The notes beneath the pieces were generated by a model that saw only the letters and a program-made list of their open reading frames with translations, ran no database searches and was not told the DNA's origin. Made by a program: the position numbers and the translations under genes. Shown here piece after piece: positions 14,507 through 16,224 of a DNA stretch of 48,200 nucleotides (its first letter is position 1; each line of letters begins with the position of its first letter). Source of the DNA: a virus (Duplodnaviria > Heunggongvirae > Uroviricota > Caudoviricetes); IMG/VR virus record IMGVR_UViG_2563366870_000003; one strand, 5' to 3'.

Positions 14507-14756
14507 GTTCCAAGATATCTGACCAACTAAGGCCATATGCGTTTCCACGCATACCTTTCAACTAACTATTCACTATTGGAAATCTTAAGAAATGGAAAGA
14601 ACAAGTTACAGCAAACTATCACAGCGTGACGTTGATCGCGCAGAAACAGATTTACTTATCAATCTGTCAGCTATTACCCAGCGCGGTCTGGCAAAGATGA
14701 TTTGAACCGCCCCGGGAATCCTGGAGACTAAACTTCCTGAGAAAGAGGTAAACAGG

Positions 14757-15083
14757 ATGACTAAAAATACTCGTTTTTCCCCCGAAGTCCGTCAACGGGC
14801 AGTCCGTATGGTTCTGGAAAGTCAGAGCGAATATGACTCACAATGGGCGACAATTTGTTCCATTGCTCCAAAGATTGGCTGTACGCCGGAGACTCTGCGT
14901 GTCTGGGTTCGCCAGCATGAGCGGGATACCGGGGGCGGTGATGGAGGGCTCACCACCGCTGAACGTCAGCGTCTGAAAGAGCTGGAACGTGAAAATCGTG
15001 AACTGCGCCGCAGTAACGATATCCTTCGCCAGGCTTCCGCTTATTTTGCGAAGGCGGAGTTCGACCGCCTCTGGAAAAAATGA
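14757..15083 (+). CDS. IS3-family transposase OrfA (IS629-type), 108 aa
   Basis: [21 protein letters not shown]… with HTH and leucine zipper; recognised as IS629/IS1203-type OrfA from memory. Confidence 0.9.
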
Positions 15084-15970
15084 TGCCACTGCTGGATAAG
15101 CTGCGTGAGCAGTACGGGGTCGGACCGCTATGCAGCGAACTGCATATTGCCCCGTCAACGTATTACCACTGTCAGCAACAGCGACATCATCCGGATAAAC
15201 GCAGTGCCCGTGCGCAGCGCGATGACTGGCTGAAGAAAGAGATACAGCGCGTATACGATGGGAATCATCAGGTATACGGTGTGCGTAAAGTCTGGCGTCA
15301 GTTGTTACGGGAAGGTATCAGAGTGGCCAGATGCACTGTGGCACGTCTCATGGCGGTTATGGGACTTGCCGGTGTTCTCCGGGGTAAAAAGGTCCGTACG
15401 ACCATCAGCCGGAAAGCCGTTACCGCAGGCGACCGCGTAAACCGTCAGTTCGTGGCAGAACGACCTGACCAGCTGTGGGTGGCTGATTTTACTTACGTCA
15501 GCACATGGCGGGGCTTCGTCTATGTGGCGTTCATCATTGATGTGTTTGCCGGATACATCGTGGGGTGGCGGGTCTCATCGTCTATGGAAACGACATTCGT
15601 GCTGGATGCACTGGAGCAGGCGTTATGGGCCCGTCGACCGTCCGGCACGGTCCATCACAGTGATAAAGGTTCTCAGTATGTATCGCTGGCCTACACACAG
15701 CGGCTTAAGGAAGCCGGATTACTGGCATCAACAGGAAGTACAGGCGACTCGTATGACAACGCGATGGCGGAGAGCATCAATGGTCTTTACAAAGCGGAGG
15801 TAATACACCGTAAGAGCTGGAAAAACCGTGCAGAAGTGGAACTGGCCACACTCACGTGGGTGGACTGGTATAACAATCGACGATTGCTGGAAAGGCTGGG
15901 CCATACTCCTCCGGCAGAAGCAGAAAAAGCTTATTATGCTTCCATCGGAAACGATGATCTGGCAGCCTGA
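15080..15970 (+). CDS. IS3-family transposase OrfB (DDE integrase core), 296 aa
   Basis: ORF track 296 aa overlapping orfA in the -1 frame; DDE-type catalytic region. Confidence 0.9.
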
Positions 15971-16147
15971 GTTCACAGATAAAACACTCTCCAGGAAACC
16001 CGGGGCGGTTCAATTGGCTGTCATGAATCGAAGATAAGCAGAACGGACTGGAGATTTATTGCTTCGGTCTTGTGTGCTTTCGGAATGGCATCAGACATCA
16101 GTCCGATTAGCAGGGCTTTTAAGTATGCGCTTGATGGACTCACCAAT

Positions 16148-16224
16148 AAAAAACGCCCGGCGGCAACCGAGCGTTCTGAACAAATCCAGATGGAATTCTG
16201 AGGTCATTACTGGATCAATCCACA
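16148..16224 (-). ncRNA. oop: Candidate oop antisense RNA (antisense to cII 3' end)
   Basis: Minus strand: GC-rich CCGCCGGGCG followed by UUUUUU (plus A-run 16148-16153) inside the cII 3' end; location between cII and O as in lambda. Boundaries approximate. Confidence 0.3.

Follow-up and report, generated by a model that had tools for sequence, protein, structure and literature searches.

We studied the prophage contained in IMG/VR record IMGVR_UViG_2563366870_000003 (Caudoviricetes; 48,200 nt, called the window in the following), whose cII gene is interrupted by an intact insertion sequence (IS), IS629. We are confident that this IS629 transposed into the cII of a decaying lambda-like prophage, between codons 37 and 38, duplicating the target ATT, and nothing contradicts this structural reading. 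The cII::IS629 allele is one of at least three lesions in the decay of the prophage and not a regulatory device. Respective feature coordinates are provided in Table 1.

The ends of the element can be placed exactly. When reading window 14000-16800, the left junction is found as ...GGCAAAGATGATT/TGAACCGCCCCGGG at 14702/14703 (short form GGCAAAGATGATT/TGAACCGCCCCGGGAATC) and the right junction as CCCGGGGCGGTTCA/ATTGGCTGTCAT at 16012/16013 (short form CCCGGGGCGGTTCA/ATTGG), such that the IS spans exactly 1310 bp. A repeat finder, run unaided, reported arms at 14702-14727 and 15988-16013 (26 nt, 92% complementarity). Since the outermost T/A pair of these arms is part of the ATT duplication, the true terminal inverted repeats are 25 nt long with 23 matches, i.e., they are imperfect, and show 5'-TG...CA-3' ends (TGAACC...GGTTCA). 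An earlier note on this DNA, made from its letters, had given the same 1310-bp limits, which the independently found repeats bear out. It had also named a 3-bp target duplication: both IS flanks carry ATT, of which the empty sites of the E. coli strains FY26 and ATCC 25922 have one. Other IS629 copies show target duplications of TTA, GGA, ATA and CTGG (3-4 bp). Only a single copy of IS629 is present within the window.

By the ISfinder criterion, an isoform shares at least 90-95% nucleotide identity with the reference IS629 over its full length, and the window element qualifies as such an isoform. It aligns without gaps (1310/1310 nt) at 99.1% identity to the copy annotated as mobile_element 'insertion sequence: IS3 family IS629' in the Stx2a phage Stx2_499 (LC567824), from which it is separated by 12 substitutions. 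The nearest copies, i.e., those in the int gene of phage 21 (AF017626) and in E. coli FY26, are 99.5% identical, and gapless alignments of the 1310 bp are found for 176 phage records. Judged by 1310 bp of gapless alignment at 99.1-99.5% to other IS629 copies, chance cannot account for the assignment.

Both transposase reading frames, orfA and orfB, are open and have the same lengths as in 7 comparison copies. They overlap at an A6 run and ATGA, with orfB in the -1 frame, and OrfB shows the catalytic residues D136, D195 and E231 with a spacing of 59 and 36, i.e., a DD(35)E triad. In this IS group, the ALIL pseudoknot, which is found here over its full model length, stimulates the -1 frameshift that fuses orfA to orfB. 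The A6 run at 15075-15080, just upstream of the orfA stop, is presumed to be the slippery site; RefSeq labels the sister IS copies with 'programmed frameshift'. Identity, open frames, inverted repeats, triad and pseudoknot together agree with the previous description of the element as IS629-like and intact. That is, as read from its sequence, the copy is structurally intact. Known IS629 (isoforms IS1203, IS1203v and IS3411; E. coli and Shigella) has the same length, termini, two-frame layout and ALIL-stimulated -1 frameshift, and like known copies, the window element makes a 3-bp duplication and sits in a prophage (PMC3271280; PMC9330008). It differs by the 12 substitutions given above and by a private amino acid exchange in OrfB that is considered below.

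Next, we consider the interrupted gene. Joining 14592-14702 to 16016-16201, which takes out the IS together with one ATT copy, yields a single open reading frame (ORF) of 297 nt (98 codons), which is identical at 297/297 nt to the uninterrupted cII of FY26 (protein WP_000442609.1, 'CII family transcriptional regulator'); the frame is thus continuous across the junction, as had been claimed. The reconstructed product matches the Pfam family Phage_CII (PF05269) with 116.4 bits (cut-off 21.3) over profile positions 1-91 of 91. It shares with lambda CII (PDB 1XWR, 1ZPQ, 8IGR; PF05269) the family profile end to end as well as the last 19 residues, which are identical in the alignment to PDB 1XWR, such that the lambda-like C-terminus named in the earlier note is found in the alignment, too. 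The N-terminal two thirds of the protein are divergent from lambda CII (phmmer E = 9e-10), and the window gene differs in being interrupted. In the same alignment, I37-G38 corresponds to lambda V33-G34 in AEAVGVDKSQISRW.

The interrupted cII reads ...AAG ATG ATT TGA, where the IS supplies the TGA (14703-14705) with its first three bases. The frame therefore halts directly after codon 37, where the earlier note had placed the split, and its product has exactly 37 residues without an IS-encoded tail. From knowledge of the lambda structure, we take V33-G34 to be the turn of the helix-turn-helix. Since the stub ends in this turn, it is without the recognition helix and the oligomerisation region, and cII::IS629 can soundly be inferred to be a null allele. 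In the pR operon, the gene follows cro and precedes the replication genes (gene order cI on the minus strand, cro, cII::IS629, O, P, ren, ninB). By descent it is a member of the CII family; with its frame no longer intact, it is a pseudogene.

The site is empty in sister prophages. Over the joined flanks (2,071 nt), a 2-bp deletion in O is the sole difference from FY26. Against the ATCC 25922 prophage, the alignment runs at 100% or 99.98% identity as far as 14702 and starts again at 16013, and the ATT is common to both ends. Thus, the comparison with an uninterrupted cII of relatives, which had been proposed as a check, yields collinearity with both empty sites. The sister prophages are 99.6-100% identical over the aligned flanking arms and are interrupted there only by their own IS copies. 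Because they carry the empty site, the insertion is recent and derived. The ATCC 25922 prophage adjoins icd on the int side and has an intact cII and O annotated. The window prophage is of the lineage that occupies the site beside icd in E. coli strains such as ATCC 25922.

Table 1. Features of the window (positions of the whole 48,200-nt stretch) and contig positions of the second-genome junctions.
Feature	Position	Strand	Description
IS21-type element	5461-7591	-	2131 bp; IstA 390 aa, IstB 266 aa; GCCT duplication
cI	13464-14165	-	Peptidase_S24 + helix-turn-helix
cro	14236-14451		HTH_3
pRE-like promoter region (putative)	14570..14614	-	TTGCTGTAACTTGT (14614-14601) over cII codons 4-8; TAAGAT downstream
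cII 5' fragment	14592..14702	+	codons 1-37 (MERTSYSKLSQRDVDRAETDLLINLSAITQRGLAKMI); equals first 111 nt of FY26 cII
Left ATT target-site duplication copy	14700..14702		codon 37 (Ile); single ATT in FY26 and ATCC 25922 empty sites
IS629 isoform (IS3 family)	14703..16012	+	1310 bp; co-oriented with cII and pR transcription
Left terminal inverted repeat (IRL)	14703..14727	+	TGAACCGCCCCGGGAATCCTGGAGA; 23/25 match to IRR
orfA	14757..15083	+	108 aa; HTH_Tnp_1 (PF01527, 49 bits)
ALIL pseudoknot	15038..15154	+	Rfam RF01497, 120 bits vs gathering score 50; model 1-117 of 117
orfB	15080..15970	+	296 aa; HTH_21 + rve (RNase H-like) core (97 bits), DDE transposase
Right terminal inverted repeat (IRR)	15988..16012	+	...CTCCAGGAAACCCGGGGCGGTTCA
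Right ATT target-site duplication copy	16013..16015		from sequence and ATCC 25922 alignment
cII 3' fragment	16016..16201	+	codons 38-98 + stop; recognition helix, oligomerisation region, lambda-identical C-terminal 19 residues
oop-like antisense unit (putative)	16150..16259	-	promoter-like site 16259-16231; strong terminator-like hairpin 16177-16150 over cII 3' end
Replication gene O, frameshifted	16234..17131	+	2-bp (AT) deletion 16334/16335
Second-genome junctions	L016 11669-11953; L021 1-500		IMG/VR UViG_2563366976 contigs 8 and 9

The earlier note had mentioned neither the O deletion nor the IS21-type element, which are the two further lesions. The O deletion leaves a 36-aa stub (16234-16344) and the remainder of the gene in another frame (16277-17131), where the frame shifts after codon 34. 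It is seen in comparison to both FY26 and Z1323CEC0013, and in ATCC 25922 the homologous coding sequence (CDS), annotated as 'replication protein', is intact. By eye, the ori iterons further into O look intact. The IS21-type element is situated in the early-left region. Its stretch (5461-7591) is absent from the ATCC 25922 prophage, and the position therein places it within a DUF1317 gene next to exo. The ORF at 5521-6321 was also considered as a 'DrmD' defence gene (PADLOC, E = 2.7e-62); this was rejected, as Pfam identifies it as the IstB of the IS21-type element. With at least three lesions (cII::IS629, O frameshift, IS21-type element), the prophage is decaying and probably replication-defective. 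Since the O frameshift and the IS21-type insertion make it probably replication-defective regardless of IS629, the question of IS629 polarity matters little.

In terms of mechanism, IS629 would have entered cII by copy-out-paste-in transposition through a circular intermediate, as known for the IS3 family, with duplication of the ATT. With only the 37-residue peptide available, pRE, pI and paQ would no longer be activated. Following lambda biology, lysogeny would not be established efficiently after infection without CII, while the cI maintenance of an existing lysogen would be unaffected. The IS lies inside the pR-cro-cII-O-P-Q operon and would be polar on O-P-Q, i.e., downstream expression after induction would need read-through of the 1.3 kb IS, probably aided by N antitermination. 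Because the IS is co-oriented with pR, N antitermination from a nutR-like site could relieve this polarity; such a site (boxA/boxB at ~14471-15) is intact upstream of the IS. The O frameshift would lead to a replication deficiency.

With regard to downstream transcription, the earlier note had considered IS-borne or read-through promoters. A simple promoter scan found no plus-strand sigma-70-like site in 14100-16400, the right end of the IS included, which leaves an IS-borne promoter for the downstream genes unsupported. Judged from lambda biology, pR read-through under N antitermination seems the likelier source of downstream transcription.

Two regulatory elements known from lambda have candidate counterparts here. 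The pRE promoter of lambda carries the CII-binding repeat TTGC-N6-TTGC at a position where the window shows an intact TTGC-N6-TTGT repeat (minus strand, over cII codons 4-8). The latter may be a pRE-like CII site that is intact while its activator is lost, by positional homology to lambda only; with 3 occurrences against 6.5 expected, the CII-type motif is no more frequent in the window than by chance. By position and knowledge of lambda, the antisense unit at the cII 3' end is the putative counterpart of lambda pO/oop, and it is untouched by the IS. On the minus strand, window 9728-9786 matches the lambda cIII RNA thermometer over its full length (Rfam RF01804, 88.5 bits), and the cIII region of the cIII/CII lysogeny branch looks intact despite the broken cII.

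The same nucleotide was hit in a second prophage. In IMG genome 2563366976 (contigs L016 and L021), IS629 is found after the same cII ATT; its orientation is the same, and ATT flanks it on either side. This second prophage is a heteroimmune lambdoid with different cI and cro as well as a different replication module with a DnaB-type helicase. Its cII is identical to the window cII at 270/297 nt and reconstructs to an open 98-codon gene. The nearest flank differences between the two alleles are 24 nt left and 3 nt right of the site, and the IS ends of the two genomes differ at positions 81, 124 and 1283 (3/375 compared positions), where the left end of the second IS is that of canonical IS629. 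The simplest reading is that the two insertions at this nucleotide are probably independent. The recurrence hints at a target preference, which two events are too few to establish.

We also studied how widely the junction is distributed. Among 5,426 complete E. coli RefSeq genomes, neither junction is found as a contiguous match (0/5,426); the inspected places with at least 80% coverage each fall into two pieces, with bases added or lacking at the join. Likewise, no phage record among the 310 matching ones extends across the junction, and the exact junction has no match in GTDB representative genomes or JGI metagenomes. Its absence from the complete genomes makes the junction usable as a strain or lineage marker.

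The top matches of a 2.3-kb E. coli search, which show 100% coverage, were considered as cases of a shared insertion and rejected, as the IS is located elsewhere in each. The IS629-family copies in cro-cII-O were taken from loci L001-L005 and L020 (FY26, Z1323CEC0013, E2865, 7784, MS 119-7, Z1323PEC0008) and differ in location: FY26 has its copy in O, Z1323CEC0013 at the 3' end of cro, and 7784 and MS 119-7 in the spacer between cII and O, and those of E2865 and Z1323PEC0008 sit at cII codon ~10 or 26 next to deletions. The common orientation of the matches from this search is a by-product of joining pieces on one strand and thus uninformative. The copies of FY26, E2865 and Z1323PEC0008 show adjacent deletions and are without target duplication, and in E2865 a RefSeq 'CII family' CDS begins inside the IS.

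The exact 37-aa stub occurs in 248 public assembly blocks, which was considered as a wide spread of the allele and rejected as well. All Logan contigs that were read (10/10; L006-L015) end in ...GATGATTG(G), i.e., in an intact cII, and not in ...ATTTGA. These short-read contigs stop 1-2 bases past cII codon 37, inside intact cII genes. As the sequence from 14674 on is common to the cII alleles of co-resident prophages, the contigs break about 30 nt later. That their reading frame comes to 37 codons is a coincidence that arises from k-mer assembly, and the partial 'protein' is spurious.

Given these distributions, the ATT of cII codon 37 may be a hot spot, i.e., a target preferred by IS629 and hit independently in lambdoid prophages. 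This would add to the reading of a plain IS629 transposition into cII, and we consider it a serious possibility that still falls somewhat short of even. It is favoured by the agreement in nucleotide, orientation and ATT duplication between two genomes whose prophages and cII genes are diverged, as well as by the differing IS ends. However, there are two events only, the junction is absent from the complete E. coli genomes, the GTDB representatives and the JGI metagenomes, and six other IS629 targets are without a common motif. Moreover, the nearby insertions listed above are scattered from the cro 3' end over cII codons ~10 and 26 and the cII-O spacer into O, and searches aimed at this site imply an ascertainment bias.

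More tentative still is the idea that this ATT, as a preferred target struck in at least two heteroimmune prophages, provides a recurring route of prophage silencing that is reversible by the IS-excision enhancer IEE; here we lean towards doubt. If true, IS629 would recurrently and site-specifically knock out a lysogeny-establishment gene, the insertion would be no one-off accident, and the knock-out could be reversed in hosts with IEE. Reversal via IEE-promoted IS629 excision would be possible in principle (PMC9330008, PMC9943667, PMC9397093) and depends on the host genome. The second hit at the same nucleotide, if confirmed, would be a small addition to the knowledge of IS629 target choice.

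A different question is whether the insertion was selected. That is, the cII knock-out together with polarity on O, P and Q could make spontaneous induction less costly (replicative killing, P toxicity) and thereby stabilise a domesticated prophage. Survivors of lambda cryptic-prophage derepression carry IS2 in P as well as small frameshifting O deletions, which likewise accompany a loss of replication (PMC4926192), and the 2-bp O deletion in the window is a lesion of the same kind. Furthermore, IS629-family copies recur in cro-cII-O of other E. coli prophages, some of them with adjacent deletions. On the other hand, the ~65/5,426 genomes with an IS629-family copy near this segment may represent no excess over chance, the three lesions may have arisen in any order, and neutral decay explains the same data. 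We thus regard selection as rather unlikely; the lesion pattern itself fits either selection against replication or plain decay.

Improbable, in our view, is a single ancestral cII::IS629 allele that passed from one prophage to another through homologous recombination or gene conversion, with the recurrence then reflecting shared ancestry. In its favour, lambdoid prophages have a mosaic make-up, and their nutR-cII 5' region, which is about 96% conserved, offers recombination substrates. But the end-points would be needed within 24 nt left and 3 nt right of the IS, and the IS copies differ at the 3 positions given above. In addition, both reconstructed cII genes are open at 98 codons despite 9% divergence, which is unexpected for an old pseudogene.

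That the IS was put into cII by a mis-joining of repeat-ended contigs can practically be dismissed. In its favour, many E. coli genomes harbour several IS629 copies, at which short-read contigs break, and the IMG/VR contigs L016, L019 and L021 each begin or end within the IS. However, the 3-bp duplication is perfect, the empty site has this sequence only once, and a mis-join would not generate a target duplication. Each flank is also collinear with the sister prophages, and in the second genome both junction contigs independently run from cII into the IS.

Some points weigh against our reading of an intact IS629 that transposed into the cII of a decaying prophage. The identical right junction occurs in only one further record, contig L019, which is 100% identical to window 15833-17007 with the O deletion included. 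At 32,368 nt, this contig has exactly the length of window 15833-48200 and probably stems from the same strain or a sister strain, such that it provides no independent confirmation of the assembly. The OrfB exchange A115T (nt 15422) is private to the window copy and absent from the 7 comparison copies. A truncated O protein that starts from the TTG at 16277 may be produced, as this would be compatible with the sequence. Finally, the null phenotype, the polarity, the read-through and the defectiveness of the prophage rest on inference.

With regard to known systems, cII::IS629 is a real but ordinary case of the known behaviour of IS629 in E. coli prophages. Most IS629 copies of O157:H7 are located in prophages (PMC3271280), and IS629 is a main driver of Stx-phage diversity (PMC4587872). 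The IS629 disruptions of O157:H7 prophages (roi, lysozyme, methyltransferase, stx2a) involve the same element, inactivate genes by simple insertion and serve as strain markers (PMC4587872, PMC8743559). They differ from the present case, where the target is cII, the prophage is related to that of ATCC 25922, and no stx gene is seen in it. In the literature searched, no published description of a cII::IS629 allele was found.

IS insertions in the early-right region are also known from lambda and likewise place an IS downstream of pR and ahead of O-P, or inside the replication genes. They concern other IS family members and laboratory lambda, in contrast to the natural prophage studied here, for which consequences are deduced. 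The classical lambda mutations r14 and r32 are reportedly polar IS1/IS2 insertions near cII; for the IS2 insertion of r32, no paper was found in the literature searched.

The recurrence at the same site is mildly unusual and the only point of modest novelty, and the insertion has little significance beyond annotation. Among pathogenic E. coli, IS629 is one of the main sources of genome diversity. A prophage without CII and with an O frameshift as well as an IS21-type insertion is probably a defective remnant, which bears on predicting phage release by the strain.

Two observations concern the window as a whole and the neighbourhood of cI. The window starts exactly with the stop codon of an integrase gene (1-1143; 380 aa, lambda-type Arm-binding domain), which adjoins icd in ATCC 25922, and its end (48200) is the end expected for contig L019; this suggests that the window was cut as a predicted provirus. 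Between N and cI (window 12118-13424, minus strand), two genes are located at the position of lambda rexAB, encoding a DUF1828 protein (250 aa) and a 185-aa protein. The pair matches the PADLOC candidates PDC-M24B (E = 5e-10, full length) and PDC-M24A (E = 5e-4, partial), and may form a superinfection-defence cassette.

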